Shown in pieces: positions 12,113-46,338 of a DNA stretch of 64,000 nt (its first letter is position 1; each line of letters begins with the position of its first letter). Source of the stretch: Thiocapsa sp. (GTDB lineage: Bacteria; Pseudomonadota; Gammaproteobacteria; Chromatiales; Chromatiaceae); assembly GCF_018399035.1 (NCBI RefSeq), contig NZ_CP073760.1:4288269-4352268 (forward strand). Reading direction: 5' to 3'. Under the pieces are notes generated by a model. The model made no database searches, had not been told where the DNA came from, and worked only from the letters and a program-made list of their open reading frames with translations. Position numbers and translations under genes: made by a program.

Positions 12113-13794
12113 TCATGTGTCTTTCTCGTTCTCTTCCGCCACCATCGAGAGCGTTGGTTGCGCACGATTTGTTGACTGTGTTCGTAGCCAGTTGGCAGTG
12201 ACTTCTATCGGGAGTAGCGCGCCCCGGAGTTTTGGAGAGGATTCGACGAATTCCCGCAGCCGATCACCATCGAACAGACCAAACAGCGCTGCTTCGTCAG
12301 CAACAGCGCAGCCTTGATCGGGTGCATTGGCTGCGACTGCAGGCCAGACGTTGCCTGCACCGATTCTGGCAACGACGAATGCACCGCCGACTAGCGCCTC
12401 GTGGACGGAAAGCGAGAAGGTCTCAGGACAAAGTTGCCAACTCACGACGACGTCGATGCGCGACTCGGCGATCGCTTCGACCATTGCATTGCGTTGTTTC
12501 GTATCGACAATGACCGGAATGTTGCGAATAAAGCTGGGTAGAGGAGATCCGGAGTCCGGCGACCCGAGCTGCAGGAATTCGTATCGACCATCGTTGGCCA
12601 GGTGCAGTGCGAGATCCTCGAAAATCGACCATCCTTTTAGAAATGCCCTGGCGCCGAGGTGGGCTACACGAAGCGGTCTGCCAGGAGGGATAGGCATGGT
12701 GCTTCGCTCGGAAGGCGCGGTTATGATACGAGCAATAGGACACGCTTCGCCCTGCGCGTGAGGCAATCCACTACCACGTCGCCAAAGGCTTAGGGCGATT
12801 TCGGACGGTGCCAGCACCGAGGGATGCACTGCCTCGAAGAACTCTCTGATCCGCTTGAGATGAGGTTTACGCTCCTCTCCGTATGAGCAGATGTTGCAGG
12901 CAACGGACATCGGTGGCGGAGCGCCGCAGTAGTCGACATCGTTACGCATGAGCGCGTAACTGGGGCAGAGTGTAAAAAAGTCGTGGATCCAGACGATCGG
13001 GCGCAGATCACCGCTCGCACGGAGAAGCTCAAATACGAACTCAGGGGCGAACCCCATCAGGTGGTGAATGACACATCGCACCTCGATGCCCTGCCTACGC
13101 TGCTCTGCAACGGCGGCAATCAGGTCTACGAACCTGGCTACCCCAGTCCATTTGGTGTCTATTCGAAGGCTGACAGCGAAATCGTCTGCAGGCTCGGGGT
13201 CTGCGAGCATCGGCAGCGGTATCGCGGGAGAAACGTGGAGGTAACGCCAACCGGTTCGGCTGAACGTAGCCTGCTCATCGCCGATGACCAACTGAACACC
13301 ACCGTAGTTTCTGGCGTAGTCGTCATGGCTGAGAGATAGGATCAAACCGCGGCTGGCAGATGAGATCTCAACGGCATCCGATAGTGTGGTTTTCGAGATC
13401 GGCGGTGAACGCTCGGCGCCTTCGATCCATCTTTTCGCTTTGACTCGCGGCGACACGCTGTCTTCAAGCTGCCGCCGGAACGCATCGAGCGGACGGCGAC
13501 GTTGTCGGCCTTCTTGCGAGCCGGCCCAGATGAAATGGAGGAGTGGGTTGATGCCGGCTGCGGCAACGTCGGGGTTTTTGCGAGATAGTAGCCCGTGTCG
13601 AAGAATCGGCTGGGGTTGCGTCCCTCGCGCCAACCAGATTCGAGAAAGTGCGTCAGTGGATCAATGCCCGCGTCGCGCACATCACTATTGGACGCAAGAT
13701 AGTAGCCGCGGTCGAAATGCGCGGCGACCGCCCGGCGTTCGTCTTCGCTTGGGCGGTGCATTACGTCGGGATATCTTGCATCTAAGCTACCCAC
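12113..13794 (-). CDS. Putative glycosyltransferase (GT-B-like C-terminus) with two N-terminal NPDV/EGR repeats; -1 frame break in the given sequence
   Basis: ORFs 13342..13794 and 12113..13633 join as ...FFDTGYYLAK|NPDVAAAGINPLLHF if the T5 run (A5 on the coding strand) at 13575-13579 is one base longer. C-terminal motif: CPETFSLSVHEALVGGAFVV. Confidence 0.6.
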
Positions 13795-25350: not shown

Positions 25351-28050
25351 ATGCGAGTGTTGATCGTGACGCATGCCGCTTCTTTTCAGACCGATCGAAT
25401 CGTGTCGGGAAACGCGGTTCGAGCGCACTATTTCGGTAAAGGGCTTGTCCAGAACGGTATTGACGTCACCTTCGCGTATCCCACGGATTTGGCTTCGGAT
25501 GAAAAACTGAATGAGGTAGGCGCCGGTTCGAGCGATCTTCGCTTCTTCGGGAGTCGATCCGAGCTCCATGAGCTGATCGGCGATGTCAAGCCGCAAGCCA
25601 TCCTGGTCGGCTATTGGGAGTTCTTGGAGCATTTCCCCGACGATTACGAGATCCCGCTGATCGCGGACATCATCGCGCCACGTATCCTCGAGGCGATTTT
25701 TCAGGACCACCAAGACGTCAATCTGCACGCGAGCAAGATGATTGCCTTGTATCGCAAAGCCAGTCGCTTTATCTGCGGCACTCAACGGCAGCGTCAGTTT
25801 CTGATTCCCTGGCTGATTCTTGCGGGATTCGATTGTCGTTTCGGGGCGCCCATCGACATCATCCCGATCTCGACGGAGCCACTGTTCTCGCGCCGTCGCG
25901 CTCATTTGTTGGATCCATGGGTCATCGTGACGGGCGGCGTGTCCTGGCCTTGGCGCATGGGTGAGCGCTATACGGATGCAATACGCGCGACCCTAGCCGA
26001 CGGCAAGGCGATGAAGGGGCGCTTGCTTCTGCTTTCTGGCGGCTATATTCACGAAAGGCCGGCCGACTCTGATAGCGCAACGTCCGCAGATGCCGACGCA
26101 CAATACGACGCGACGGTTCAACATATCGGTCTATTGCCGTACGGGGACATGGAGCGGCTGTTCAGCGAGCAGTGCGATATCGGTATCGAGCTCTCCGACT
26201 ACAATATCGAACGGGATTTCAGCGCATCCTTCCGCTCCATCGAGTTTCTGCGGTGCGGGCTGCCCGTGATCTGCAACCACACGCTCGAGTTGGCCCGGCA
26301 GGTCAACGACTATGATGCGGGGTGGGTCATCGAGAGACCGGAGGACTTGCCCGCGCTGCTCGCAGCGATTGCGGGCGATCTGCCGGGTTACGATCGGAAA
26401 TCCGCCAATGCCATTCGATTGGTCGAAGAGCGCTATCATTATCTCAAGACGATTGTTCCTTTGGTGGAGTACCTTCGGGACCCGAAGGCGCCGGAAAAGA
26501 CCGATGATTGGTTCTTTCGTGGATCCGAGAAACTGGCGTTGGATCTCTATCATCAGGTCAGCGAGCTGGATCATCAACTGCGCATCCGCGACAAGCAAAT
26601 CACCGATTTGCGCCGGGATGGTGAGCGTCTGAAGGCAGAATTGGATGACGTCCTCGGGGGCGCAAGCTGGCGGCTCATTCAGCCCGTCAGAGACGTCGCC
26701 CGGAGACTGGTGACCTTCAAAAGTTTGCTCCTCCGTGCCGTGGCGAGCGTCTATCGGCGAGGGTGGAAGCACCCCGGACCGCGCGAGGAGTTCGCCTTGG
26801 AGTCGGGTCGATACACCCCGCGGGCGGCGGACTCTTCGCGGGATAAGTGGATTGATCGCAAGGGTCGCTATGTCGCGATCGTGAGTCGGGAGGATGTCTT
26901 TCCGACGAATCACGGCGCGGCGGTGAAGATCGAGCGAACGGCTTGGGGCCTGTCGCACCTCGTCGACGGTGTCTTTCTGATTACGGGTGACTGGGGGCGC
27001 TATTACGAATTCAAGAACGGAAGCGCAACGGAGAGGTATTTTCCGTTGCCGATCAGGCTCTCCGGGGTTTCCGGGATGGTGTTCAGAAAAAGGCTGCTGC
27101 GAACGGGCATTCCGATCAACGAGGCCTATATCTACCAAGCGCTGTTTGATTGGGGCTATTTCGTTCGTCTCATGTATCTCGCCTTGCGCTATCGCATCGT
27201 CCTGTACCAGGCAGAATTTCCGGCGTACGCGCAGGCATGTGTCCGGGCGAAGCGTCTTCTGCGCGGAAAGACCCTGTTGGTCGAGCACAACGTGGAGTGC
27301 GATCGGATCAAGGCCCAGTATCCGGAAGTGTCGCAGCAGATCTACGCATGGCTGCGGGATCAGGAGGTCGGACTCTGCAATCAGGTCGACAAGGTCATCG
27401 CGGTATCTCAGCCGGATCGGGATTTGCTCGTCGGTCACGGCGTGGATCCGGACAAGGTGCATGTGATCCCGCACGGTGTCGATCTGGGTGCGTTCGAGAA
27501 GACCTATGCGTTCAGCTTGCGCGATGCCTATGGTGTGCCTGCGGATACGCGCATCATCCTGTATCACGGAATTTACAGCTACGCGCCGAATCTCGAATCC
27601 ATCCGATTGCTTGCGAAAGAGATCCTGCCGCGATTGAGGCTCCGAGGCTGGAAGGCAAAGGTGTTTGCCATCGGGCCCGAGGCGCCCCTCGACGCAATCG
27701 ATCCGGATGTCGTCTTTACCGGTTCGGTCGATCAGCTTGCGCCTTATCTCAAGAGCGGGGACTTGGCGGTGGTTCCGCTGCAGCAAGGCGGCGGAACGCG
27801 GATGAAGATCTTGGAGTATTTCGCGGCCTCGATACCGGTCGTGACCACCTCGAAAGGGGTCGAGGGGATCCCTGCCGAGAACGGCTCGCAGGTCCTTATC
27901 GAAGATACCTTCGACGGCATGGCGAATGCGATTATTCGATTGTTCGAGCACCCTGAGGAAGGAATGGCGATGGCCGAGCGGGCGAAGGATATCGTCGAGC
28001 GTTCGGATTGGAAATCGATTGCCGATCAGTATCTGAGTTTGCTGAAATGA
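25351..28050 (+). CDS. Two-module GT-B (GT4-like) glycosyltransferase with a central coiled-coil linker
   Basis: ATG at 25351 (MRVLIVTHAASFQ...) within ORF 24655..28050. Central segment: LDLYHQVSELDHQLRIRDKQITDLRRDGERLKAELDDVLGGASWRLIQPVRD. C-terminal motif: GGGTRMKILEYFAASIPVVTT (EX7E). Confidence 0.8.
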   Translation: MRVLIVTHAASFQTDRIVSGNAVRAHYFGKGLVQNGIDVTFAYPTDLASDEKLNEVGAGSSDLRFFGSRSELHELIGDVKPQAILVGYWEFLEHFPDDYEIPLIADIIAPRILEAIFQDHQDVNLHASKMIALYRKASRFICGTQRQRQFLIPWLILAGFDCRFGAPIDIIPISTEPLFSRRRAHLLDPWVIVTGGVSWPWRMGERYTDAIRATLADGKAMKGRLLLLSGGYIHERPADSDSATSADADAQYDATVQHIGLLPYGDMERLFSEQCDIGIELSDYNIERDFSASFRSIEFLRCGLPVICNHTLELARQVNDYDAGWVIERPEDLPALLAAIAGDLPGYDRKSANAIRLVEERYHYLKTIVPLVEYLRDPKAPEKTDDWFFRGSEKLALDLYHQVSELDHQLRIRDKQITDLRRDGERLKAELDDVLGGASWRLIQPVRDVARRLVTFKSLLLRAVASVYRRGWKHPGPREEFALESGRYTPRAADSSRDKWIDRKGRYVAIVSREDVFPTNHGAAVKIERTAWGLSHLVDGVFLITGDWGRYYEFKNGSATERYFPLPIRLSGVSGMVFRKRLLRTGIPINEAYIYQALFDWGYFVRLMYLALRYRIVLYQAEFPAYAQACVRAKRLLRGKTLLVEHNVECDRIKAQYPEVSQQIYAWLRDQEVGLCNQVDKVIAVSQPDRDLLVGHGVDPDKVHVIPHGVDLGAFEKTYAFSLRDAYGVPADTRIILYHGIYSYAPNLESIRLLAKEILPRLRLRGWKAKVFAIGPEAPLDAIDPDVVFTGSVDQLAPYLKSGDLAVVPLQQGGGTRMKILEYFAASIPVVTTSKGVEGIPAENGSQVLIEDTFDGMANAIIRLFEHPEEGMAMAERAKDIVERSDWKSIADQYLSLLK

Positions 28051-28274
28051 TGTTCTGCAGTGCCCGAAAAGCGGTATTACTCATAGGTCCGTTGAGCCGC
28101 CGATCGGAGTGGTCGGGTGGACAAGCGCTACGCAGTTCACCCGCGCGTACGGAGCTCTCCGGGCGGGCCTGATGAATAAGGCCCGCATTTTGTGTCCCGG
28201 CGTTCCGCCTCGGTCTTGCGTGTTGTCCGAAGCGATGGTCCACGCCCGGTTCAGCCGAAATAAAGAAGTCGCTC

Positions 28275-29777
28275 TCAATCGCTCGTATGGGTTTGAGGGA
28301 TTCGACTGATGTCGTAGACCCTGATGTCTCCTTCGGTATGCACGAGCATATGGTCTTCGATGAAAGCGCCGATCAGGCCTTCGATTCGGCTCTGCACGTC
28401 TCGATCCTGATCGCTGGTCACAAACAGGACGTGGTCGCCCGCATCCAAACACGATCGGACATATTGATCCTCGGCATAATAGGCGAAAACGCAATGTTGT
28501 AGCTCGGGGCGAGCCACATACGTAGGAAGATACCAAGATTGTCCTTCGATCTCTGTCAAAAGTATGACGTAATCGCGGTATGGGCCTTCTTGCAGCCAAG
28601 ATGAGATCTGCGTGATTTCGTTCGGTCTCCAAAGCGTGACATAAAAGTCGTTGTAGAGATGGTCGAGCGTATCGTAGAGCTTAGGCTTGTAGAGCATTGG
28701 GAAAAGCAAAACAAGAACGACAAGTACGTTTCGCCAGCGAGGTTGCCAGCTGACGGTCAGGCGTGCAAACGGCGAAACGGCGAGCGGAAGTGCCAACACG
28801 AAACCAAATAGAAGATATCGGTCCCATAGGTCCCATCCGCGATCGAGCGTGAAACGATACATAATGGTCGAGTAGACCGCAAACAAGAGCAGGTAAAATG
28901 CTTTTTCCAGCGAGAATCGACGGCGCGCGATGTCTGAGAGGAGAAGAATGAGGCCGACGATAACAGCAATCGCTATGCCGTAGCCTAGGTGTTTCGTGGA
29001 TTTTTCGCTGATAATTTGAGCGGCTTCAATCGCTCCGACGGGCTTGACGCCGTGATACCAGCCCTTGGCCTGACTGAAGCCGAGGAAAGGATCTCCGGTA
29101 TGCAGATAGTTGCCGTAGGTCCAGATCAGTGGGTACAGGAGAAGTCCACAGAGAACCAAGATGGACTCGGTGCGGCTGCGGGTCTTGGCGTAATAATACG
29201 CGACGAAGATCGGCGCGAGGACCCACCCCTCGTAACGGGTCATGACCGATAACGCGAGGACGAGCACAGCTGCGGTCAGGAGAAGATAGCGGGTGTTGCT
29301 CCTGGTGTTTGCCGCGGAAACCAGAAACAGGCTTCCGGTCAGGACCTCGAACAGGAACGTTGGCTCGGTGAGTGAGGTCGCGCTAAGCCCGATGTGAATC
29401 GGGAGGAGTGTGAGGACAATCCCAGTCAGCAGGGCGGTGAGGGGGTCGAAGACCTTGAGAACAAGAAAATACAGGATGACGACGGTAAGAGATCCGATCA
29501 ACAGATTGACGAGTCTCGATGTAACGGTCGGATCATCCAAGAGAACGTAAAATAGGCCATGAAGATAGGTGTTCCCGGGAAGCCAAACCCCGGAGATCAT
29601 TATCGAAGGTGCGTGGAACCATTGAAACGCTTGAATGGCGCGAGTCGGTCCGTCGCCCGGGACATCGATGGTAAAAAGAAGAACGACGAGTCGTAGCGAA
29701 AAAGCGACCAGAAAAAGCCAAAACGGGATCCATTTTGAATCGGCGTGGCTGTTGGCTGAGGTCAGCGATATCGTCAT
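28275..29777 (-). CDS. GT-C fold membrane glycosyltransferase (ArnT/PMT, GT39/GT83-like)
   Basis: 500-aa ORF. About 11 hydrophobic segments plus a soluble C-terminal domain. N-terminal loop: DVPGDGPTRAIQAFQW. Clearly AT-richer than neighbouring genes by eye. Confidence 0.65.
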   Translation of the reverse strand: MTISLTSANSHADSKWIPFWLFLVAFSLRLVVLLFTIDVPGDGPTRAIQAFQWFHAPSIMISGVWLPGNTYLHGLFYVLLDDPTVTSRLVNLLIGSLTVVILYFLVLKVFDPLTALLTGIVLTLLPIHIGLSATSLTEPTFLFEVLTGSLFLVSAANTRSNTRYLLLTAAVLVLALSVMTRYEGWVLAPIFVAYYYAKTRSRTESILVLCGLLLYPLIWTYGNYLHTGDPFLGFSQAKGWYHGVKPVGAIEAAQIISEKSTKHLGYGIAIAVIVGLILLLSDIARRRFSLEKAFYLLLFAVYSTIMYRFTLDRGWDLWDRYLLFGFVLALPLAVSPFARLTVSWQPRWRNVLVVLVLLFPMLYKPKLYDTLDHLYNDFYVTLWRPNEITQISSWLQEGPYRDYVILLTEIEGQSWYLPTYVARPELQHCVFAYYAEDQYVRSCLDAGDHVLFVTSDQDRDVQSRIEGLIGAFIEDHMLVHTEGDIRVYDISRIPQTHTSD

Positions 29778-30063
29778 GGCGTGTGATCTAACCCCTTGCG
29801 CGCTACTGACGGGATGGCCGTAGCGTTGGTTGGAAAAACAGGTTCAGCGATCGGGGGCGCGGCCGGGGTGGGTGAAGAACAGCCAGCGGTCATGTATTCG
29901 TTTTACACCGGTGGCGTTGCGCGAAATGAACGCGCTTCGAGTGCACCCGGTTTTCGGTTCGAAGCATTCCGGCCGAACGGCCGTCAAATTGGCTTTGGTT
30001 ATCGTTTCGTCGAGGCATCTTGGGTTTCCCAACGGGACGCTAAAATTCGGCCGCACGCCCCTG

Positions 30064-30170
30064 GTGCGCCGACTTCAGTCGGCACCCGGGGGAGACGGAC
30101 TTCAGTCCGCCGCGCGGGCGCGCTCGGGCGACTGAAGTCGCCCGTCCCCCGGGGTGCCGGATGAATCCGG
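30064..30170. repeat. Compound palindrome, family G (three GACT-N2-AGTC hairpins inside a 17-bp inverted repeat)
   Basis: Hairpins GCCGACTTCAGTCGGC, GGACTTCAGTCC and GGGCGACTGAAGTCGCCC. Outer arms are GCACCCGGGGGAGACGG / CCCGTCCCCCGGGGTGC. The same hairpin motif occurs in MITE B and at 54576-54592. Confidence 0.7.
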
Positions 30171-30236
30171 CGTACCCGAGCGGTCGCGGGCGGCGACCTG
30201 GTAACGGCCGATGTGGCCGAAAGATGATCGAGGCCG

Positions 30237-30608
30237 TCAAATCCACTTCGGAATCAGGATCAGCCCCCAAACCACAACGGCAAACACGATGCTCGAGAAG
30301 ACCGCAGCCGAAGCGATGTCCTTCGCGCGCGCCGAGAGCTCGTTGCGTTCCATGCCGACCCGATCGACGTTCGCCTCGATCGCCGAATTCAGCAATTCCA
30401 CGATGGGCACGATGAGCAGGCTACCGACGAGCAAGGCGCGCTCGACCGCGGAGTGGCCGAGCCAGAGGCCGAGCGGGATGAGCGGAATCAGCAGGAAGAC
30501 CTCCTGACGGAAGGCCTCTTCCAGTTCGAAACAGGCCTTGAAACCCTTCATCGAGTATCCGAAGGCGTAGATGACGCGGCGCCACCCCTTGGCATTCTGA
30601 TTAGCCAT
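30237..30608 (-). CDS. dgkA: Diacylglycerol kinase
   Basis: 123-aa ORF. Sequence: [36 protein letters not shown]...VELLNSAIEANVDRVG. Confidence 0.9.
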   Translation of the reverse strand: MANQNAKGWRRVIYAFGYSMKGFKACFELEEAFRQEVFLLIPLIPLGLWLGHSAVERALLVGSLLIVPIVELLNSAIEANVDRVGMERNELSARAKDIASAAVFSSIVFAVVVWGLILIPKWI

Positions 30609-32072
30609 GCATGTCCTTGTGGTGTTCTTGCGGATTCCAGGCGAGATCCAGGTTACGAGCGGCCCGCACGTCGTCGAGTCGGCGTACCGGCATGGTGTGT
30701 GGAGCGGTTTTGACCAACTCGGGATTGGTTTGTGCCTCTTCCCGGATCGCGATCATGGCCGCGACGAAGCCGTCGAGATCCTCCTTGCTCTCGCTCTCGG
30801 TCGGCTCGATCAGCAGACATTCGGGCACCAGGAGCGGGAAGTAGGTGGTCGGGGCGTGATAGCCGTAGTCCAGCAGACGCTTGGCGAAATCCATCGCATT
30901 GACGTCCAGCTCCTTCGCCTCGCGCCTGAGCGTGATGATGAACTCGTGGCTGGCGCGACGTTGCGGGTAGGCGGCATCGAAGCCCGCCGCCTTGAGCCGA
31001 GTCATCAGATAGTTGGCGTTCAGGGTCGCGAACTCGGAGACGCGGCGCATCCCTTCGCGCCCCAGCAGTCGCGCGTAAATGTAGGCGCGCAGCAGGATGC
31101 CCATGTTGCCGCCGAACGCGGTGAGGCGCCCGATGCTCTCGGGGCGCTCGGGCTCGGCCAGCCAGTGGTACTCCTCCCCGTCGAAGGCGACCAGCGGGAC
31201 CGGCAGGTAGGGTTCCAGGCGTGCCGAGACACCCACCGGTCCGGCACCCGGACCGCCCCGCCGTGGGGTGTGGAGAAGGTCTTGTGCAGGTTCATGTGGA
31301 TGACGTCGAAGCCCATGTCGCCCGGACGCACCTTGCCGAGGATGGCGTTGAGATTGGCCCCGTCGTAGTAGAGCAGTCCGCCGGCCGTATGGACACGCGC
31401 GGCGATCGCCTGGATGTTGCGGTCGAACACGCCGACCGTGCTCGGGTTGGTCAGCATGATGCCGGCGGTCTGCGGCCCGACGGCCTGCTCGAGCGCGGCA
31501 AGGTCGACGTCGCCGTCGGGTCCGGTCGGGATCTCGCGGACCTTGAAGCCGCACATGACGGCGGAGGCCGGGTTGGTGCCGTGTGCCGCGTCGGGGACCA
31601 GGATCTCGGTGCGGGCGATATCGCCGCGGGCCAGATGGTAGGCGCGGATCATGGCCACACCGGCCAGCTCGCCTTGGGCTCCGGCGGCGGGGGCCAGTGA
31701 GACCGCGTGCATCCCGGTGACCTCTTTGAGCATCTCCTGCAGCTCGTAAAGGCAGGCCATGAAGCCTTGGCTGTGGGACTCGGGTGCCAGCGGATGCCGC
31801 GCCAGGAATCCGGGCAGCATCGCCAGCGTGTTGCAGGCCCGTGGGTTGTACTTCATCGTACAGGAGCCCAACGGGTAGAAATGGGTGTCGATCGAGAAGT
31901 TCTTCTGCGACAGCCGTGTGTAGTGGCGGACCGCCTGAAGCTCGGAGACCTCCGGCAGGACGGGTCGGCTCCGACGCCGCAGCGCCGCCGGAATGTCGGT
32001 GACCTCGGGCATGGCGAGCGGTGCCTGCGCGGTGGCGCGGCGTCCGGGTCTGGAGCGTTCATGTATCAGCAT
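30601..32072 (-). CDS. gcvPB: Glycine dehydrogenase (decarboxylating) subunit 2, GcvPB; -1 frame break in the given sequence
   Basis: ORFs 31020..32237 (ATG 32072, [12 protein letters not shown]...[12 protein letters not shown]) and 30601..31554 (...[20 protein letters not shown]...) join if the C4 run at 31256-31259 (G4 on the coding strand) is one base longer. Confidence 0.9.
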
Positions 32073-32149
32073 GGCAGTCGGCTTCGGTGAGTGGATCGAG
32101 TCGGAACCGCGAAGGCGCAACGGCGCAATGCGCGACGGCGTCGGGCTTA

Positions 32150-32231
32150 AACCGCGCCGGGTGCGGTATGCGTCGTTTGTTGGATTCGCTTGGCCGCGCC
32201 AGCTCCGACAACTGTCGGAGCTGGCGCGGTT
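32150..32231. mobile_element. TA-flanked AACCGCG-TIR MITE
   Basis: Structure TA|AACCGCGCCGGGTGCGGTATGCG...CTGGCGCGGTT|TA, 82 bp. Confidence 0.8.
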
Positions 32232-32252
32232 TAGCACTGATCCGTTTCAAAA

Positions 32253-32332
32253 TCTCTCACGGAGACCTGGAGACACGAGCCGTATTCAGAACGGATCTCG
32301 GATTCTCCGTGCCCTCCACGTCTCCGTGAGAG
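32253..32332. repeat. 80-bp palindromic element, family H
   Basis: 14-bp termini TCTCTCACGGAGAC ... GTCTCCGTGAGAG. A single arm also occurs at ~49826-49852. Confidence 0.7.
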
Positions 32333-32335
32333 GTA

Positions 32336-32415
32336 AACCGCGCCCAGAGCGAGATGCTCACTTTCGAGTGGGCTCGACGTTTGGTGCATCCACGGCCCTT
32401 AGCGGGGACGCGGTT
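32336..32415. mobile_element. TA-flanked AACCGCG-TIR MITE (subfamily 2, inverted copy of 15591-15671)
   Basis: Structure TA|AACCGCGCCCAGAGCGAGATGCTCACTTTCGAGTG...GGGGACGCGGTT|TA. Confidence 0.8.
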
Positions 32416-32439
32416 TAAAATAATATATTAAATATCTTA

Positions 32440-32520
32440 AACCGCGCCGACTCCAGCGGTCGTCAAAACTGCCGGGGCCGATCCCATCCAAAAACATCGC
32501 ATACCGCACAGGGCGCGGTT
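32440..32520. mobile_element. TA-flanked AACCGCG-TIR MITE (subfamily 1, inverted)
   Basis: Structure TA|AACCGCGCCGACTCCAGCGG...CGCATACCGCACAGGGCGCGGTT. Separated from the previous MITE by the conserved AT-rich spacer. Confidence 0.8.
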
Positions 32521-32545
32521 TCATTCGAGTCGGAAAGAACGCGCC

Positions 32546-33043
32546 TCAGAGTGCAGCCAAGGCCGCGTCGTAATCGGGCTCTTGGGTGATGTCGGGCACG
32601 AGTTGGGTGTAGATGACCTTGTTGTCGGCATCCAGGACCACGACGGCGCGGGCGGTGATGCCGGCGAGCGGACCGTCCTCGATGAGCACGCCGTAGTCCT
32701 TCGCGAAGCTGCGCGAGCGCATCATGGAGAGCGCGACGACGTTCTCGATGCCTTCGGCCCCGCAGAAACGGCCCATCGCGAAGGGCAGGTCGGCCGAGAT
32801 CACCAGGGCGACGGCAGCGGGTTTGCCGGCCATTGCCGTGTTGAAGTGCTTGGTCGAGGTCGCGCAGACCGGCGTGTCTAGGCTGGGAACGATGTTGAGC
32901 AGCTTCTTCTTGCCGGCGAAATCGGCCAATGTCTTGTCGCCGAGATCCTTGTCGACCAGCTTGAAGTCGGGCGCGGTGCTGCCGACGGCGGGCAGGTCGC
33001 CGGCGAGCTGGACGGGGTTGCCTTGCAGTGCTGTTTGAGCCAT
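32546..33043 (-). CDS. tpx: Thiol peroxidase
   Basis: ATG at 33043 ([30 protein letters not shown]...[14 protein letters not shown]). Confidence 0.9.
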
Positions 33044-33214
33044 GAGTGTGTTCCGATCGTTGGTGGTTGGATGTTGCATCCGCGTCGGCGCGGGTTGGGC
33101 ACGCTGCGCTTTGCCCAACCTACGGCGGATGGCGTTCACGCATCTGTACACTTTCGTTTTCGAGCCGTCGCTGACGCTCGCCCGGCCCGACCCACAGGGT
33201 CAACGCAAGCGCCG

Positions 33215-34615
33215 CTAAACTTCGGGCGCCACGGGGCAAGGCACCTGTGTTCGGGCGGAGATGATACGCCCGAGGTTGCTTGCATAGGACTGCATCTCTT
33301 CCTCCGTTCTCAGCTCGGTCGCGCAGACCAGGACCGCGGGATCGAGCTTGGGATACTCCGCGCCGAGGTCGCATCCGCCCAGGATGTTGTGTGAAGCCAG
33401 CGAGCGGAGGACGTCGGCCGCGGGTGCAGGCAGGCGCAGCGCCTGCTCGTGGAAGACCGGTCGATCGAACAGGGGCGCCACGCCCGGGACTGCGCACAGC
33501 AGCTCGGCGAGCCGTCGGGTATTGGCATGACAGGCCGCGGCGACACGCTCCAACCCCTCGGCGCCCAGCAGGGTCATGTGGATGGTCGCGGCGGTGACCA
33601 GCAACCCTTGATTGGTGCAGATGTTGGATGTCGCCTTGTTGCGCCGGATGTGCTGCTCGCGGGCCTGCAGGGTGAGGGTGAAGCCGGGCTTGCCGTCCAG
33701 ATCGAGCGTGCGGCCGACGATGCGCCCGGGCAGTTGGCGCACGAATTCCTGACGACAGCAGAGGAACCCGGCATAGGGTCCGCCGGAGGCGAGCGGCATG
33801 CCCAACGGCTGCGCCTCGCCGCAGGCGATATCCGCGCCGGTGCTGCCCCAGTCTCCGGGCGGGGAGAGCAGGGCGAGCGCGACCGGGTTGACGACCCCGA
33901 TGACCAGCGTGTCGCGGGCATGGGCCCAGTCGGTGAGCGCGTCGACGTCTTCGAGCACGCCGAAAAAGTTGGGCTGATTGACCACGAGCGCGGCGTAGGG
34001 GCCGTGTTCCGCCAGCGCATCCAGGGCCTCGATCGCGGTGTGTCCGCCACGCGGGTCGAACGGCACCTCGACCAGCTCGATGCCCTGGGTGGAGACGATG
34101 CTGCGCAGGGTGCGCCGATAGGCCGGGTGCAGGGAGCGCGGCACGAGGACCTTCTCGGACTTGACCTTGCGGTTCGCGCGCACCGCCATCAAGACCGCTT
34201 CCGCCAAGCCGGACGCGCCGTCGTAGAGCGAGGCATTGGAGACGGCCAGTCCGGTTAGGGCGACCATCATGGACTGGAACTCGTAGAGCAGCTGCAGGGT
34301 GCCCTGGCTGGCCTCCGCCTGATAGGGCGTGTAGGCGCTGTAGAACTCCCCGCGGGTGGCGATCTGCCAGACGGCGGCCGGGATGTGATGATCGTAGGCG
34401 CCGGCGCCGATGAAGCAGAGTGGCTGCCCGTCGGCGCGCGCGCGCGACTGCATCAGTCGGCCGATGTCCATCTCGGCCATGCCGGTGGGGATGGCCGCCA
34501 GCTCCCCGATCTGAAGCTCGGCCGGGATCTCGTCGAAGAGATCATCGATGGAGGCGACGCCGACGGTGTCGAGCATCGCGGCGATGTCGTCGGGGGTGTG
34601 GGGTACAAAGGGCAT
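33215..34615 (-). CDS. gcvPA: Glycine dehydrogenase (decarboxylating) subunit 1, GcvPA
   Basis: 466-aa ORF. Sequence: [34 protein letters not shown].... Confidence 0.92.
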
Positions 34616-34617
34616 AT

Positions 34618-35010
34618 TTAGGTCTCGTCGTCAACGACCTGTTGATAGGCTGCCGCATCCAGGAGTCCGGAGAGCGCAGCCATGTCGTTCGGGGCGAGGC
34701 GGAAGATCCAGCCTTCGTCGAAGGGGCTGTTGTTGATCGCCTCCGGGCTGTCGTTCAGAAGCGCGTTCGACTCGATGACCTCGCCGGCGAGGGGTGAATA
34801 GATATCGGAGGCGGCCTTCACCGACTCGACCACGGCGCAGGCTTCCTCGGCGTCGACTTCGCGCCCTTGATCCGGGATCTCGACGAAGACGATGTCGCCG
34901 AGCGCCTCTTGGGCGTGATCGGTGATGCCGACGGTGACGGTACCGTCGCCGTTGTCTCTGATCCACTCGTGGCTTTTGGTGTATCTCAGGTCAGCAGGGG
35001 CGTCGCTCAT
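34618..35010 (-). CDS. gcvH: Glycine cleavage system H protein
   Basis: 130-aa ORF. Sequence: [37 protein letters not shown]...[12 protein letters not shown] (lipoyl-lysine motif). Confidence 0.95.
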
Positions 35011-35067
35011 GGTTCTCTCCGATCAATCGACGGGTTGTCTGTGCGCTCTTCGCGCCGTTGCGATCTA

Positions 35068-35148
35068 AACCGCGCCCAGTGCGGTATGCGATGTTTTTGG
35101 ATGGGATCGGCCCCGGCGGATTTCAGAGCCGCTGGAGCCGGCGCGGTT
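35068..35148. mobile_element. TA-flanked AACCGCG-TIR MITE (subfamily 1)
   Basis: Differs from 15483-15563 by about one base by eye. Confidence 0.85.
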
Positions 35149-35177
35149 TAAGAACGATTCAAAAACAATCGAGACAT

Positions 35178-35209
35178 GTAGGATGGGTAGAGCGTAGCGA
35201 AACCCATCC
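35178..35209. repeat. Single GTAG-type REP arm, family C
   Basis: Sequence GTAGGATGGGTAGAGCGTAGCGAAACCCATCC. Confidence 0.75.
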
Positions 35210-35227
35210 TCACAGCTCAAACGCTTA

Positions 35228-35330
35228 GGCGATTTCCGGGAATGATCATCCCGGCCGTGCGTGTTGCCAATGCTTACCGGGCGACTAAAGTCGCCCCTAC
35301 ATGTTGGTCGATGCTTTCCCGGAAATCACC
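35228..35330. mobile_element. MITE family B (copy 2), flanked by TTA/TTA
   Basis: Same 103-bp body as 22578-22680. TTA at 35225-27 and at 35331-33. Confidence 0.8.
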
Positions 35331-35370
35331 TTAAGCCGCGCCCGGTGCGGTTTCACCCTGACCACAGGGG

Positions 35371-36461
35371 TCAGAGGTCGATGCAGATCCGGCCTTGCCG
35401 CACGAACGGCGGTTTGACGATACGTGCGCTCACGGGTTTGCCGCGGATGTCGACCGCGCACTCCGCGGGTGTGCCGGGCTCGACCCGCGCGAACGCGATC
35501 GAGCGCTCCAGGGTCGGCGAGAAGCCGCCCGAGGTGACCTCGCCGACCGCCCGGCCGTCCGCGAGGACGCTCTGGTGAGGGCGCAGGACGCCGCGGCCGG
35601 TCAAGAGCAGACCGACGAAGTCGCGCCGCTCGGGATGAACACGCCGAGCGGTCAGGGCCTCGCGACCGATGAAGTCGCGCTCCTGCGGCTCCGGGCGATG
35701 GTCCAGCCGAGGCCGGCATCGAGCGGGCCGACCGTCTCGTCCATATCTTGGCCGTAGAGGTTCATGCCGGCCTCCAGGCGCAGCGTATCCCGGGCACCGA
35801 GGCCGCAGGGGCGCACATCCGCCGCGACGAGCGCGCGCCAGAGTGCCGCGGCCTCCGCGCTCGGCAGCATGATCTCGAAGCCGTCCTCTCCGGTGTAACC
35901 GGTGCGCCCGACAAACCAGTGCGCGTCCTCGGCCGCGAAGAAGGGTCCGACCTGCATCGCCGAGGCGCGCAGCCCGTCGGGCAGCAGCGGCTCGACGCGG
36001 GCACGCGCATCCGGTCCCTGCACGGCGATCATGGCGAGGTCGCCGCGGCTTCGGATGTCGACCTGACGTCCGCCGGCCTGTGCCTGCATCCAGGCGATGT
36101 CTTTCTCGGCAGTGCCTGCGTTGAGCACCGCGCGATACCGCTCGGGTCCGCGAAAATAGAGGATGAGATCGTCGACCACGCCACCCTGCGGGTTGAGCAT
36201 GCAGGCGTAGAGCGCCTTGCCCGGCGCGGTCAGTTTGGCGGCATCGTTGGCGAGCAGATGTCGCAGAAAGGGCAGGGCATCCGGGCCTTCGATGTCGACC
36301 GGGCGCATGTGGGAGACGTCGAACATCCCGGCGGCGCGGCGCACCGCGTGATGCTCTTCGATCTGTGAGCCGTAGTGCAGCGGCATGTCCCATCCGCCGA
36401 AGGGGACGATCCGGGCGCCGAGACGCTCGTGCTCCGAAAACAAGGGGGTGCGCAATCCCAT
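35371..36461 (-). CDS. gcvT: Glycine cleavage system aminomethyltransferase GcvT; -1 frame break in the given sequence
   Basis: ATG at 36461 ([33 protein letters not shown]...). ORFs 35652..36725 and 35371..36393 join as ...AGLGWTIA|[14 protein letters not shown] if the G3 run at 35693-35695 (C3 on the coding strand) is one base longer. Confidence 0.9.
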
Positions 36462-36759
36462 CCGACTCTCCGTTCGCCTGGTGGCTCGCCCGGCGGGCTG
36501 GCCTGTTGAGTCGTCACCGCTCGCGAGGCGTCGACCGGGGTCAATATCGGGCGCAGGTGCGCTCGATACAAAGGGCGAAGGAAACGGGTGATGCGCGCAG
36601 GCCGCGTGCGGGTCGACCGTCCGATACAGGACGGCGAGCCGGAATGCGAATGCGCTCGAGGGCGCGACCCCGGATGCGGGGGCGACGGAGCAGGCGCGCG
36701 GCGCGTTCCAGGCTCGTGCAGGCACGATCCTTCGGGATCCACCCGGATCCTCGACACCG

Positions 36760-36955
36760 CCCCTCTGTCCCAGACCTGAGAGTTTGCAGGCGGCCGAACG
36801 CGTCGGTCGCTGCTGCCCCTTCGGTGGGTCCCGACTGTCGGTACAGTCCGGACCGCTCTCCAGAGTCGGTCGTTATTCCCGCGGTCCTTTTGCCTGAGCG
36901 ATTCCGGGCAGTGTTGCGCCTTCGGCGCCGGCCGAGGCCGGACTCTCCCGCGGGA
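36760..36955 (-). promoter_or_regulatory. Tandem glycine riboswitch (two aptamers)
   Basis: Minus-strand read. Aptamer 1: CGCGGGAGAGTCCGG...GCGCCGAAGGCGCAA...CTCAGGCAAAAGGACCGCG. Aptamer 2: CTCTGGAGAGCGG...CCACCGAAGGGGCAGC...CTCTCAGGTCTGGGACAGAGG. Lies upstream of gcvT. Confidence 0.9.
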
Positions 36956-36987
36956 CTTGACGCGAAACGGGACTATAAGCGCGGTTC

Positions 36988-37121
36988 GCTCGGATTTCCA
37001 GCGATCACGGTTGCGGGCCGTAGGTTGTGCCGAGCCGTGCGAGGCACAACCAACCGTCGGCGCAAGTTGTGCTTCCTATCGTCAGCACAACCTGCGGGTA
37101 TGGAGATTTCCGGAAATCGCC
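36988..37121. mobile_element. MITE family A (copy 3, left end degenerate)
   Basis: Core GTAGGTTGTGCCGAGCCGTGCGAGGCACAACC...GCACAACCTGCGGGTATGGAGATTTCCGGAAATCGCC. Confidence 0.65.
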
Positions 37122-37149
37122 TGAATCGCCCCCATCAACCCGCCTCCGC

Positions 37150-37668
37150 CTACGGGCAGGCGCTCTTATCGCCCGCGACCTTGCCGGTCAACTGCAGGAA
37201 GGTATCGAACGGACCCATGACGCCCATGGCCTCCATCTTGGGTCCTTTGAACTTGAGTTTGCCGGTCGTCATCGCGCCCATCGCACCGCAGCCGAAGCGG
37301 CCTTCGCCCATGCAGGCCCAGTCCTCGTCGGTTGCATTCATCAGGTAATCGACCTCGGGGTCGAGCGTCGTGGTCTTCACCGCGCCGCCGTAGGTGCACA
37401 GGGCCTTGCCGTCCTTGTCGCTGATCTGCAGCTCTACACGGCTGCCCTCGCCGCACTGGGTGCGATAGAGCTGGATGACCTTGTGTCCGCGACCGGCGTT
37501 GTTCGCCGCCCAGTTTTCGCCGGCCAGACCGGCGGTGAGCGCGCCGGCGCCGTTCCAGGCTTGACAGGCGGAGGCCGCCCAATCGGCGTCCATGAAGGTG
37601 GCGGCCTGAGCGCTGGCGGAGACGGTCAGGGCGAGAGCCGGGAGGGCGAGCGCGATGCGGCGAATCAT
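37150..37668 (-). CDS. Secreted SCP2 (sterol carrier)-like domain protein
   Basis: 172-aa ORF. Signal peptide MIRRIALALPALALTVSASAQA. C-terminal TGKLKFKGPKMEAMGVMGPFDTFL resembles the SCP2 signature. Confidence 0.55.
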   Translation of the reverse strand: MIRRIALALPALALTVSASAQAATFMDADWAASACQAWNGAGALTAGLAGENWAANNAGRGHKVIQLYRTQCGEGSRVELQISDKDGKALCTYGGAVKTTTLDPEVDYLMNATDEDWACMGEGRFGCGAMGAMTTGKLKFKGPKMEAMGVMGPFDTFLQLTGKVAGDKSACP

Positions 37669-37956
37669 GATGGTGTCCTCGTCTGGTGTTATTTGCGGGC
37701 AACGCCTGTGTCCGCTGTTTGTCTTGTCGTTCGAGCGCTTCGATGCTAGTCGGCGCGGGGCCGGTGATGCAACTGCAGGGCGACGAGCCGATCGAGCCTA
37801 AGTTCCGGTCTCTGGCACCGATGCAACGAGCGCCCGGTCCAGAGCACGGAGCGGTCGCTGGAACTTTGACGCTGTGGGGAAGATGTCTTTGGTGACCTAC
37901 GTAGACAGTTCTTGCCGGCCAGACCGACGCGCAAAACGACCGCGCCCGGACGGAAG

Positions 37957-39461
37957 CTATCTGGTCTGCCCCCTTTTCGGATTCCGAGCCAGCCGCGCCA
38001 GGGCAGAGATGGCCTTCGCGACACTCGCCCCACGCCCAATCGATCTCTGCAGATTCTTGGCAAATTTCAGCTGACGCGCGTCATCCTCGTTCTGGACCAT
38101 CCGTTCGAGGCTGGCGATCAGCGCGTCGGCAACCTCCCGTTCCCCGCGCGCGCGGTTCAGCAAGGCCATTGATCCGTAGAGGATGAAAAGATCATGGATG
38201 TGGATCCGTTGGCGAGCCGCTAACCCTTTGAGCAACTCGTCAGCCTGATCCAGCTTGCCATCCAGGATCACCAGATTGGCCAGATTGCAGCGTGCACAGA
38301 GGTAGTCCGGATGGTCTGCAACAACCTCCCGCAACAGTTGCTCCGCCTCCTGGTGTCGCCCTTGGGCGGAACGAATCGCCACCAGATTGCCCTTGGCTAC
38401 AGCATGGTCGGGAACGCGTGCCAGGTGAGCGGGAGCGCCCGCGCGAGATCGAAGACCGATGGATACGCGAACGTCTGATGGTCCCGTTCGAGACCGGCGC
38501 TGTTGTGAAGCGCAAGTTTGAAATCCGGCGTCAGCGCCAGCGCCTCGCGCCACAGGCCCAGTGCGTCCGACACTCTGCCCAACCGACTCGCGGCGCAAGC
38601 CGCGAAGTGGTGCAGCAGCGCACGCGAGTAGCCCTCACCGATCTCGAACCAGTCGCATTGCGTGTTGCGTGTAAAGACATCCCGGGCGACCGCGTCCTGC
38701 CGAAGCAACAGCAGGGCATCGAGCTGGAGCAAGGCGTCGTCCAGACGCCTGGCGGTTGCCCCCGCCAAGGGAATCGTCAGACCCTGCGCCCCCACCTCGT
38801 CGCCCCGATACAGGCGCAGGCGCACAGCCCAGCCGAGGGCGAACAGGTTGTCCGTATCCGCCTCCCAAGCGGCCATGAAACCGGCCAACGCCTCATCGAT
38901 TCGACCGAGATGAAACAGCGCCATGGCCCTGTTGTTGCGTGCAGAGAGGATCTCCAGGCCGTCGAGACGCGCGATCGCACCGGCGAAATCCTGTGCGTCC
39001 AGATAGAGTTTTCCGATGTCGAACCGTTCGATCTGCTCGACCGTTGCCGCGGTTCCGTCCGGCATCGAGAGCAGGTCCGCACGCAGGTCGGGTGTCACCG
39101 GAAAACCCGGCGTCACCATCCCCAATGCGCGCAAATGCCGCGCCGCGCGATCCGCCAGCAGGACATGCCCCAGTCGTGATGCAAAGGCGAGCAGCGCCCC
39201 CTGGGCCTGGACACTGTTGGGTCGACGCTCGGCCCATTCGAACGCGGCAAGCCCCGCCGCACGGATCCCCTCGCTGCGCTCCAATGCCTCGACCAGAAGG
39301 CGTCTGAGTCCGGCATGATCAGGACATCGGTGAACCAGCGGCTTGAGCCGTTGGACCGCTTTGGTGTACTCGCCTGCTTCGATCAGGCGCTCGATCGCCT
39401 TCAGTTGGGCGGCTTCGGGTTGTGGTCGGCCGGGCTTGGTCTTGCTGGGTTTCTTCGGCAT
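37957..39461 (-). CDS. TPR-repeat protein; possible -1 frame break (or two overlapping genes)
   Basis: ORF 38397..39461 (354 aa, TPR-like helices) ends ...LPLTWHAFPTML. ORF 37957..38598 continues TPR-like sequence (...PDHAVAKGNLVAIRSAQGRHQEAEQLL...). They join if the G3 run at 38410-38412 is one base longer. Confidence 0.55.
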
Positions 39462-39536
39462 GCGGGATTCCAGTTCAAAGCAGGGCGCCGCTTAGGCCTG
39501 TGCCGCAGCAACCGGGTTACAACCAGCCGGCGCGTC

Positions 39537-39890
39537 CTACGCCGCTTTCAGCACGATCTCCATGCGCACCTCGTCATAAGGAAACACCAGTTTGCCGTCA
39601 TCGGTCTTGTCGAGCACACCACAGACCACAAGTGCCTGAGCATCCGTATGCACGCCTTTGACATCGCGCCCGACGCGCCGCGCGAGTTCTCGTACCCCGA
39701 GCGGTCCGGCCCCCGTCATCACTTTGAGAATCCCCCAACGGTTGCCTGTCAACGTCGCCCAGAGATCCTCGTAGCTCGGAAACGTGATGAAACAGCCTTG
39801 CGGCTCGCCGTGAAAAGCACCTTTGGTGCGCCGCTTGGTGGTTTCGATGTCGGCGACTTCGATCGTCACAGTGGTCATGGGGTGCCTCAC
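39537..39890 (-). CDS. Winged-helix antitoxin-like DNA-binding protein (TumA / HVO_A0114-like)
   Basis: 117-aa ORF. Sequence: ...LTGNRWGILKVMTGAGPLGVRELARRVGRDVKGVHTDAQALVVCGVLD. Has a 4-nt overlap with the upstream small ORF. Confidence 0.6.
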   Translation of the reverse strand: MRHPMTTVTIEVADIETTKRRTKGAFHGEPQGCFITFPSYEDLWATLTGNRWGILKVMTGAGPLGVRELARRVGRDVKGVHTDAQALVVCGVLDKTDDGKLVFPYDEVRMEIVLKAA

Positions 39891-40099
39891 AGTCGGGCGA
39901 CGTCGGCCCAGAAATCATCGACCAATTGATCGAGTGTCGTGAAGGCATAAGAGACTTCACGAGCGCCCACGTGCTTGTGGTCTCCCTTGCCGCTCTCGTT
40001 GTCGTAGCGAAGTACACAGACCTCATCGATCACGAAGGCCAAACGGTACTTGAAGGAATGTCGACTGCCGGGCGCGGGTTCGGGGAGCTGCCAGATCAC
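39887..40099 (-). CDS. TumE-like (DUF6516) toxin-family small protein
   Basis: 70-aa ORF. Sequence: ...FKYRLAFVIDEVCVLRYDNESGKGDHKHVGAREVSYAFTTLDQLVDDFWADV. Operonic with the wHTH gene. Confidence 0.55.
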   Translation of the reverse strand: MIWQLPEPAPGSRHSFKYRLAFVIDEVCVLRYDNESGKGDHKHVGAREVSYAFTTLDQLVDDFWADVARL

Positions 40100-40586
40100 A
40101 ATATCCGCAAAGCGGTTGTCGCTCAGCTTGACGCGCGATCTCAGGAGCAGGGCAGCTGGCGTGTTGTAACCATGACAACAACCTTGGGCGTTGTCAACGT
40201 TGATGAGAGCAAAAACCTTATCACCGCTTTCGGCCGTCTGTCAGTGTCGGCAATGTGCGTCGTTCAGTCGCCCGACTTGGGTCACGGACTTGTCGCTCCG
40301 CCCCAGGAGCGGTCTGTCATGGGACTCGCACCAGCGTCCCCTGAATGCCACATTGCGGTCACTGACGCCCCTGAAAAACGGCGAACCGCCAACAAAGAAG
40401 GACACTCGATTCGTAGCGGTTAGCCGGCACTCGTTCCCGGAGCGAGCACGTAGTCAGCGAAGTCAGACTATGAGGCTGTCCGACTTGGATTCGCGATGGC
40501 GATTATGGAACCTGAAGCGGACAAGTCGAGGGGGCAGCTCCCCCTATTCGTTTGGGTCGGTCAGAGGTAGACGCGGACATCAAGCG

Positions 40587-41207: not shown

Positions 41208-41217
41208 GGGCAGAAAC

Positions 41218-43900: not shown

Positions 43901-44015
43901 CGCGATCGGGCTCAGGCGTCGGAGAAAGCACTGACCTGGAGGGCTACAGGCTCTGCCTTCCGGGTAGCGACACCCACATGCCCCCGAGACCGGAAAGTCC
44001 AGACGATATGCTTTA

Positions 44016-45313
44016 GGCGAATTACGGGGAAAGTTATACCATTGTGTGAGATAGTCGTGACTGGCTTTGAAGCAACGCGCGGATTGTCATGATCTCTGAT
44101 CCGAATCCAACCGCCCCGGATGCGGGGCATCGCGAGGATCTCAAACTCGCCGCCTCGAAAATGCTCGGAGCGGAGCGACGGGCGTTCCAAGCGGCGATGG
44201 CCGTGAAATATTGCGCCGGGAGCGCCCGGCAGGCCGAAGCCGTCTTCGGGTGGAGCTGGGTCTGCATGAGCGGCGCACCGGGGTGGTCTGCTTGAGCGCA
44301 CAGTCGGCGTTCGGCGGCGACAAACTTTGGGAAGAGAAACATCCCGCGGCGGCGGCGGTGCTGCGGGAGCTGGCGGATGCGCACTCGCAACAAGACCCGA
44401 CCTTCCGCACGACGCAGTCGTTCACCCGTTTGACCGCGGCGGAAGCCCTGAGGCAATTGCGCGCGCGCGGCATTGCCGAGGCCGAGCTGCCCTCGCCGAG
44501 CACGATGGCCCAGATACTGAACCGCAACGGTTACCGGCTGCGGCCGGTGCTCAAGGCCAAACCCCAAAAAAAGTCCCGCAAACCGATGCCATCTTCGACA
44601 CTATCCGAGCCAAAGACCAACGCGGCGAGGGTGGCCAGGTCGCGCGACTGAGCGTCGACTGCAAGGCTACGGTGATGATCGGCGAGTACTCGCGGGGCGG
44701 CTGTCGCCGTGGCGAGGTCAAGGCCGCCGACCACGACATGGGCTGTCATGAGAAAGACACCCCGTTCGGTCTGGTCAACGAGGACACCGGCGCGCTGCAC
44801 CTGACCTTCGGAAGCTCCGCCAAGACCAGCGACTTCATCGTCGACTGCCTGTATGACTGGTGGGAGCAGCAACCTCCCGAGCAGCGCGAGCGCATCACCC
44901 TGGTTCAGATCAAGGCCGACAACGGCCCGGAAAGCAACGGGCGGCGCACCCCATTTCTCAACCGCATGGTCGCGTTCGCCGATCACATCGGCAAACCCGT
45001 TCAGCTGTTGTACTACCCGCCCTATCACAGCAAATACAATCCGGTGGAACGCTGCCGGGGGATCCTGGAACAGCATTGGAACGGTGCGCTCCCGGTGGAC
45101 GCCCGGACCATGCTCGAGTGGGCCAAGAGCATGACCTGGAAGGGACTGAATCCGGTCGTGGAGGTGAGTCGTCAGGTCTATGAAAAAGGGATCTCACTGT
45201 CCAAGACGGCCATGAAGGACATCGAGGCGCGCTTGCAGCGAAACCCGGAGCTTCCGAAATGGGACATCCTGATCCAACCGGCAGTCTCGGTATGAAAGTT
45301 CACGGAAATCGCC
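44016..45313 (+). mobile_element. ISAzo13-family insertion sequence (~1.3 kb)
   Basis: Imperfect IRs: GGCGAATTACGGGGAAAG (from 44016) and, at the right end (to 45313), the reverse complement GGCGATTTCCGTGAACTT. Flanked by TTA / TTG. Encloses the transposase frames. Confidence 0.7.
44089..45295 (+). pseudogene. ISAzo13-family DDE transposase split over three frames (two -1 breaks)
   Basis: ORFs 44089..44295, 44211..44651 and 44327..45295. C-terminal motif: ...IKADNGPESNGRRTPFLNRMVAFADHIGKPVQLLYYPPYHSKYNPVERCRGILEQHWNG. Breaks at G3 44248-44250 and A7 44566-44572. Confidence 0.75.
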
Positions 45314-45329
45314 TTGAGGGACCGGGTCT

Positions 45330-45410
45330 CGTTCGTCGGTTCGGCGATGGTGGCACGTGGCGCGGAGCGCCACGGGGCATGCGTGACACCGCGGAGCGGA
45401 TGTCACGAGC
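45330..45410. repeat. Family E repeat (inverted, diverged copy)
   Basis: Contains GTGGCACGTGGCGCGGAGCGCCAC and GTGACACCGCGGAGCGGATGTCAC. Confidence 0.6.
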
Positions 45411-45459
45411 TCCGATGTTTTTGAATCGGTCCTGGGGCGAGCTTGCGCCGAGGCCGGAT

Positions 45460-46002: not shown

Positions 46003-46061
46003 CCTCTCCGGTGGGTAGAGCGCGGGGCAGCGCTTGCCGCTGCGTCGGCGCCTGACGCGTG

Positions 46062-46177: not shown

Positions 46178-46338
46178 GAGGTTAAAGTGTGCAGTATGGC
46201 CGCGATTTCGCAAGGCCGGGTGCACCGGCTGGTCTCGCCCCGAGGTGCGCCCGATGTGCCCCGGGTCGCCGCGGATCCGTCCGCTGCGGTATCCTAACGC
46301 CCATCGCCGTCACCCCCTTGCCGGAAGACCGAGCATCC

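Follow-up and report, generated by a model that had tools for sequence, protein, structure and literature searches.

The window, i.e., the whole 64,000-nucleotide stretch of DNA analyzed here, spans bases 4288269 to 4352268 of a single-contig genome of 5,726,338 bases. It bears the glycine-cleavage genes gcvPB and gcvT, a TPR-repeat gene, a GT-like gene, an ndvB-like gene for a cyclic β-1,2-glucan synthase, and one copy of an insertion sequence (IS) of the ISAzo13 family (Table 1). Its G+C content varies between 51 and 68% across 2-kb windows. The public runs that contain the stretch are labelled as salt-lake, soda-lake and lake-water metagenomes, and relatives from the same genus reach about 95% DNA identity in gcvPB.

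Seven -1 frame breaks are present in the assembled sequence, each of them consisting of two overlapping open frames on one strand with the downstream frame at -1, exactly as an earlier note on this DNA had claimed. The note had placed all seven at short homopolymers, and its positions stand for the runs in gcvPB, the GT-like gene and the ndvB-like gene and for the A7 run of the IS (44566-72), but not for gcvT, the TPR gene and the first break of the IS. One added base does restore the frame at all seven in arithmetical terms, as was also claimed. The seven breaks very probably have at least three causes, namely consensus errors, real lesions, and a built-in feature of the IS.

Table 1. Coordinates of the features discussed, in positions of the window.
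Feature	Position	Strand	Remarks
GT-like gene	12113..13794; T5 13575-79	-	Probably one A short on the coding strand
gcvPB break	31256..31259	-	C4 (G4 on the coding strand); gene about 30601-32072; one base missing
gcvT break	35691..35695	-	CCGGG; frames 35371-36393 and 35652-36725; one C gone from a CCC run
TPR-repeat gene	37957..39461	-	Two frames, 38397-39461 and 37957-38598; TPR Pfam matches in both pieces
ISAzo13-family IS	44015..45314	+	1300 bp; imperfect terminal inverted repeats; one of five genomic copies
16-bp deletion junction	44248..44249	+	In orfA of the window IS copy, between GGTGGAGC direct repeats (8 bp)
A7 then G	44566..44573	+	Codons CAA AAA AAG; candidate site joining orfA (~173 aa) to the DDE frame (240 aa)
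ndvB-like cyclic β-1,2-glucan synthase	59057 to beyond window end; C5 62687..62691	+	Probably one C short
Intergenic repeats	32148-32237, 15480-15675, 29991-30236, 32334-32521, 35066-35153, 49606-49800, 58082-58259

Comparison with Relatives and Public Reads

Syntenic DNA of five same-genus genomes was aligned to the window, and only the indels common to all aligned relatives were used. This comparison of homopolymer lengths, which had been proposed as a check, found that the window uniquely lacks one base at 31256 (7/7 relatives; 5/5 syntenic), 35691 (5/5), 62687 (3/3), and 13576 (1/1 aligned), whereas neither the TPR gene nor the IS has a syntenic counterpart in the five genomes fetched. The other proposed check, against reads, relied on Logan contigs from four runs (X1, X3, X5, and X8) belonging to three studies, which were placed on positions 27001-47000 of the window and covered five of the seven sites. 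Run X1 comes from the same strain, with no other difference across 4.3 kb, and run X5 from a population that is about 0.5% different. The accuracy of the runs, whose sequencing platform is not on record, was inferred from contigs of kilobase length with no mismatches. The contigs bore out longer runs behind 31255 and 35690, but confirmed the short form in the TPR gene and left the A7 run unchanged.

Private one-base differences at 24282, 46216, 51019, and 56315 were also considered as frame breaks and were rejected as lineage differences lying outside strong coding signal. At 46216, the window reads GG-CC for GGACC or GGTCC in four relatives; the coding signal upstream is weak, and the site falls within the first codons of a 936-aa open frame starting at 46189 that has a class-I tRNA-synthetase-like match and a provisional listed start. 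Since a read contig from the other population (X5) reproduces the form found at 46216, this difference is real.

Two further observations concern the surroundings of these genes. Intergenic repeats of about 87 bp and of about 190-245 bp occur in dozens per genome, here and in same-genus relatives, with 85-98% identity; reads cover them 10-100 times as deeply as single-copy DNA, and they look like MITE/REP-type elements. A 2198-aa open frame (1507-8103, minus strand) lies in a stretch of lower G+C content (51-55%, 1-6 kb) that is found partly in only one relative, and the region is probably an accessory island.

A 16-bp Deletion in One of Five ISAzo13-Family Copies

Elements of the ISAzo13 family range from 1.25 to 2.2 kb in size. 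The ends of the copy in the window match at 18 of 30 positions (AGGCGA..TT.CG), and the four other copies in the genome are 94-95% identical. Its transposase gene yields two matches to the Pfam model DDE_Tnp_ISAZ013, PF07592, one of 211 bits at profile positions 62-308 and one of 38.5 bits at 2-68, both above the cut-off of 26.9, so that the split falls at profile positions 62-68; the two scores obtained with the NCBIfam model NF033519 (152.7 and 23.8 bits) place each piece below the 200-bit cut-off for the whole protein.

The break at 44248, the first of the two in this element, is a 16-bp deletion and no homopolymer slip. The 16 bp (GGTGGAGCCGCCAAGC) are absent from the window copy and present in all four other genomic copies, and one contig of run X8 carries them at 44248, where run X3 shows depth lacking the insertion and runs X1 and X5 have no cover. 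Because 16 equals 1 modulo 3, the deletion mimics the loss of one base, and what the frame actually lacks here is 16 bp rather than the single base that had been supposed. The bases were probably lost in this one copy of the five by slippage between the 8-bp direct repeats. Other lesions are seen among the genomic copies, i.e., a stop in one and a truncation in another.

A Candidate -1 Recoding Site in the ISAzo13 Family

The second break of the IS lies at the A7 run (CAAAAAAAG in the window copy; CAGAAGAAG is the form of the same sequence with the A-run disrupted). Because the zero-frame codons are CAA AAA AAG, the classical heptamer A_AAA_AAG is in phase with orfA. All five genomic copies share the A7 run and the two-frame layout without any difference, the run also occurs in an IS copy of another genome of the genus, and no indel was seen in it in the read contigs of any run, including an X1 contig of another IS copy that spans it. 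The A7 break is probably a conserved -1 recoding site, with a predicted trans-frame product. According to this reading the run is no lesion: orfA ends on CAA AAA AAG with the catalytic DDE frame at -1, and slippage of a minority of ribosomes (or RNA polymerases) on A_AAA_AAG would yield the complete OrfAB transposase, in the manner of IS1 and IS3.

The family is present in 15 of 201 genomes of the class, a tally that includes G154 and G052 (flagged as unpublished), and most of its copies there are single open frames of 400-430 aa. In one other genus, the copies break at the same profile position, at CCT CAA AAA AAC, into the same two frames, with a protein identity of 66% (272/410). When one genome per species was scanned with an alignment of the DDE part, 80 loci were recovered (more than 30 records by hand count), among them isolates as well as assemblies with contig names suggesting short-read assemblers. 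By tblastn, orfA and orfB are adjacent at 59 of the 80 loci, and their joining needs a -1 shift at 47, none at 11 and a +1 shift at one; the remainder consists of 13 loci with non-adjacent ends and eight without an orfA match. Scored by the run itself, 59 of the 80 loci have a C followed by seven to nine A, with the DDE frame at -1 in 48 (29 with A7 and 19 with A8), in frame in 10 (A8-G or A9-T) and at +1 in one. The -1 DDE frame is 187-244 aa long in 43 of these 48 loci and shorter in five truncated copies, orfA measures about 170-200 aa wherever it is included, and the phase of the heptamer is the same throughout the 48. The hosts of the A_AAA_AAN subgroup comprise purple sulfur bacteria, relatives of Accumulibacter and Competibacter, methanotrophs, nitrifiers, and many cyanobacteria.

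Programmed -1 frameshifting takes place on A_AAA_AAC in IS1 and on A_AAA_AAG in the IS3 family and in dnaX. Like IS1 and IS3, the ISAzo13 subgroup has an orfA followed by a DDE orfB at -1, bears an in-phase A_AAA_AAG, A_AAA_AAC or A_AAA_AAA at the end of orfA, has a zero frame that stops 2-32 codons later, and keeps this layout across hosts. Unlike them, it belongs to a family (PF07592) made up mostly of single open frames in the class searched, and no hairpin or pseudoknot was found downstream. Indeed, no stable structure was detected 3′ of the heptamer in the window copy, in which folds of 40-90 nt gave z-scores of 0.06 to -0.42; downstream folds in the copies of the other genus gave -1.1 to -2.5, with no helix in common with the window copy. 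A regular expression for the peptide motif had no match in distant ISAzo13 members. The heptamers named for IS1, the IS3 family and dnaX are listed in passages of PMC3711429.

Transcriptional slippage on A-runs is described for IS630-type and other IS (PMC1088944; PMC3711429, in the passages on slippage), and the families thought to use it have, in the same passages of the latter, clusters in either direction, +1 as well as -1, and runs that exceed seven (PMC3711429). The ISAzo13 subgroup has in common with such elements an A7-A9 run at the frame junction of the transposase and variants that are in frame with one more A; unlike them, its direction is almost always -1 (48 vs. 1) and its phase is fixed. 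Either transcriptional or ribosomal slippage could operate here; judged by the criterion given in those passages of PMC3711429, the conserved direction and fixed phase lean toward the ribosomal mechanism.

Under a different origin of the A7 and A8 runs, which we regard as unlikely, an A-run prone to mutation would have decayed repeatedly or would switch the element on and off by phase variation, the active form then being the one in frame (A8-G or A9-T). Mutation is also frequent at A7 runs, and the in-frame versions, which differ by one A and amount to 10 of 59, point against recoding; a distant single-frame relative with A8, the lack of any downstream stimulator among the folds computed, and the damage that some copies carry elsewhere go in the same direction. 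Decay fits poorly, however, with -1 forms that outnumber in-frame ones 48 to 10 at protein identities reaching down to 57%, with two frames that both remain open (orfA of about 170-200 aa and a -1 frame of at least 187 aa in 43 of 48), with a direction of shift and a heptamer phase that are conserved save for the single +1 case, and with the multi-copy state of the element in several genomes. The reading that we prefer to decay is that a widespread ISAzo13 subgroup makes its DDE transposase by programmed -1 recoding on an A_AAA_AAN run conserved in phase, and as a general statement on the subgroup it is put forward tentatively, with slightly less than even confidence. A search of the printed literature, with ISfinder and the annotation notes of NCBI outside its scope, found no record of recoding in the ISAzo13 family. 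The words “ISAzo” and “Rhodopirellula” are absent from the main text of PMC3711429, the relevant passages of which list other families only.

Consensus Errors in gcvPB and gcvT

The breaks in the two glycine-cleavage genes are assembly errors. At the gcvPB site, one more base is found in all seven relatives, six of which have G5 on the coding strand vs. G4 in the window. A 6262-nt contig of run X1 lies on 27001-31311 with no other letter changed, its sole gap being an extra C behind 31255, and this C is carried at a depth of 25.3/25.3 in X1, 525/525 in X3, and 31.7/31.7 in X8, X5 having no cover at this site. In gcvT, Pfam assigns GCV_T to one frame and GCV_T_C to the other, and all five relatives are one base longer, with CCCGGG in the nearest one vs. 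CCGGG in the window. The extra C behind 35690 is found at 16.2/16.2 in X1, 45.3/45.3 in X5, and 34.3/34.3 in X8. Run X3 shows it at 0/874, a depth without insertion that may stem from contigs ending at this point and that comes from a run of a study otherwise showing the correction.

As the relative and the read contigs indicate, the base missing from gcvT is a C of the adjoining CC at 35691-92, and not a G of the G3 at 35693-95 as had been claimed; the repaired peptide therefore reads ...GWTIAREPQ... instead of ...APEPQ.... Because contigs derived from reads of the identical strain carry the extra C in both genes, the two breaks are errors of the assembly consensus, and the earlier argument that breaks in housekeeping glycine-cleavage genes are no real pseudogenes is borne out.

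A True Frameshift Allele in the TPR Gene

The TPR gene, an accessory gene, is broken by a true frameshift of one base. An X1 contig on 37064-38730 is the same as the window, with no differences and no gaps, and since it comes from the identical strain, the break is a real allele of that strain. No insertion occurs at the break in X3 and X8 either. An extra G behind 38423, by which GG at 38424-25 becomes GGG, is seen only in X5 (79.3/79.3). The frame can be restored anywhere within the overlap of the two frames, and reading through with an X at either place gives a single frame of 501 aa. The G3 at 38410-12, to which the break had been assigned, lies 12 nt away from the only place where the one intact allele seen differs.

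Deletion-Type Frame Changes Across the Genome

The whole genome was scanned with a codon log-odds model trained on 638 long open frames, a hand-over being counted where the coding signal changes frame without changing strand, 45 nt or more ahead of the first frame's stop. The -1 type accounts for 67 of the 80 hand-overs returned and the +1 type for 13. After removal of the 31 in multi-copy DNA, unique DNA holds 40 of deletion type vs. nine of insertion type (binomial p = 9e-6). Two relatives, scanned over 433,341 nt, yielded none, against an expectation of about six (Poisson p = 0.002), or about 3.7 when unique events only are counted (p = 0.025). Because the scan detects only two of the five non-IS breaks of the window (gcvPB and ndvB, but not gcvT, TPR, and GT), these counts are lower bounds. 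Enrichment for homopolymers near the -1 events is modest: the longest run reaches 4 or more in 42/67, vs. 209/480 control windows, and 5 or more in 16/67 vs. 51/480, and five of the 67 have no run longer than 2. Other ways of classing indels were abandoned. Six-frame open-frame length and GC3 phase left known breaks classed as “neither” or “weak signal,” the wrong and antisense frames being uninterrupted over hundreds of bases at 62-66% G+C; simple counts of indels between the window and relatives consisted mainly of compensated or intergenic ones.

Among the best 20 events outside the window, 18 were scanned with Pfam, the other two being sequence duplicates. Four of them split one domain mid-way (class-I tRNA synthetase, DUF2126, AAA, and IS66); the others gave ambiguous results or no match. 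The split synthetase is valS, the only valS match in the genome, which is distributed over two frames at profile positions 2-436 and 440-861; its C-run is one base longer in all four aligned relatives, the fifth relative having no match. The losses in gcvT (35690-35695) and in valS (G000:C1:4735558-4735560) both turn CCCGGG into CCGGG and could reflect a context-specific, possibly methylation-related consensus error, not a pure run-length effect.

The consensus probably gives short homopolymers, chiefly those of C or G, one base too short and thereby splits intact genes into two frames. Like the homopolymer deletion errors of long-read assemblies, the losses are private, affect one base in a short run, split conserved or essential genes, show a deletion bias, and, in gcvPB and gcvT, are corrected by accurate reads. 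Unlike the typical long-read case, the runs are short (C2-C5), two of the errors are in CCCGGG, and not every break of the window belongs to the pattern. A long-read origin of the assembly, whose platform is not on record, is inferred only from its single 5.73-Mb contig.

Multi-copy DNA accounts for 27 of the 67 -1 hand-overs, including an IS66-family transposase split mid-domain (G000:C1 ~1682350). Identical pairs broken at the same place are found at G000:C1 ~1583800 and 4804000 and at ~401700 and 3506400. Such multi-copy hand-overs may be further recoding sites or lesions shared between IS copies.

The ndvB-Like and GT-Like Genes

The identity of the ndvB-like gene is given by Pfam Glycoamylase and GH94 domains in the downstream frame, together with source names. 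Its break is flagged by the codon-model scan, and all three aligned relatives are one base longer, one of them with C6. Given the genome-wide pattern and these relatives, there is a high probability that the same kind of consensus error is at work here. In a protein search over the 250 aa preceding the break, no relative exceeded 76% identity (proteins of 137-438 aa), a result uninformative about the strain itself. For the GT-like gene, which has no Pfam or NCBIfam match, a consensus error is favoured with less assurance: the sole aligned relative has 6 bases vs. the T5 of the window, and a repeated peptide motif, YYLAK|NPDVAAAG..PL.HF, spans the break. Two exact-pattern scans of metagenome contigs, in which one base more was permitted at the ndvB and GT sites, returned no matches.

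Public cyclic β-1,2-glucan synthase “proteins” of only 200-430 aa were encountered as well, many of them on contigs between 100 kb and 1 Mb long (P0006, P0007, P0011, and others). Pieces of a gene of about 2800 aa inside such long contigs suggest that similar false splitting is common in other assemblies.

Real Disruption or a Single Cause

Were the short runs real, gcvPB, gcvT, ndvB, and valS would be disrupted in the strain or read by frameshifting. The lack of an insertion at 35690 in X3 agrees with this, as does the strong coding signal kept in both halves of every gene; against it, the longer runs at 31255 and 35690 stand at full depth in same-strain read contigs, the genome would be left without an intact copy of valS, which is essential, the C4 and CC runs are outside any recognised slippery heptamer, and the longer run is found in all relatives. 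We therefore attach very little weight to real disruption, and consensus error remains our reading of these sites.

The equally improbable view that all seven breaks are one-base base-calling errors at homopolymers, with every gene intact in the cell, draws on their uniform -1 direction and arithmetical repair, on the two sites proven to be errors and on the genome-wide excess of deletions, but conflicts with the exact reproduction of the TPR break in the identical strain, with the 16-bp deletion in the IS, and with an A7 run shared by 5/5 copies, a second genome, the read contigs, and 48/59 related elements of other assemblies.

Implications for Pseudogene Calls and Mobile-Element Recoding

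Systematic base-calling error, the cause first put forward for the whole set, thus holds for gcvPB and gcvT, in which read contigs carry the extra C, and not for the TPR gene, 44248, or the A7 run. In the same way, the caveat that had been extended to every pseudogene call is justified for breaks at C/G runs in native genes and not wholesale. Without short-read polishing, the genome is unfit for pseudogene mining: falsely split unique genes number about 40 as a lower bound and probably more than 100, including valS, gcvPB, and gcvT, and because such genes are falsely split, an inferred loss of glycine cleavage or of cyclic glucan synthesis would be wrong. Blanket repair of every -1 break would in turn erase a real pseudogene allele of the TPR gene, polymorphic between lake populations, and a conserved candidate recoding signal of an IS family. 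None of the three kinds of event, homopolymer errors, real frameshift alleles, and IS recoding, is new in itself; the only part that is possibly new is recoding in an ISAzo13 subgroup, which would make a small, testable addition to the catalogue of mobile-element recoding.
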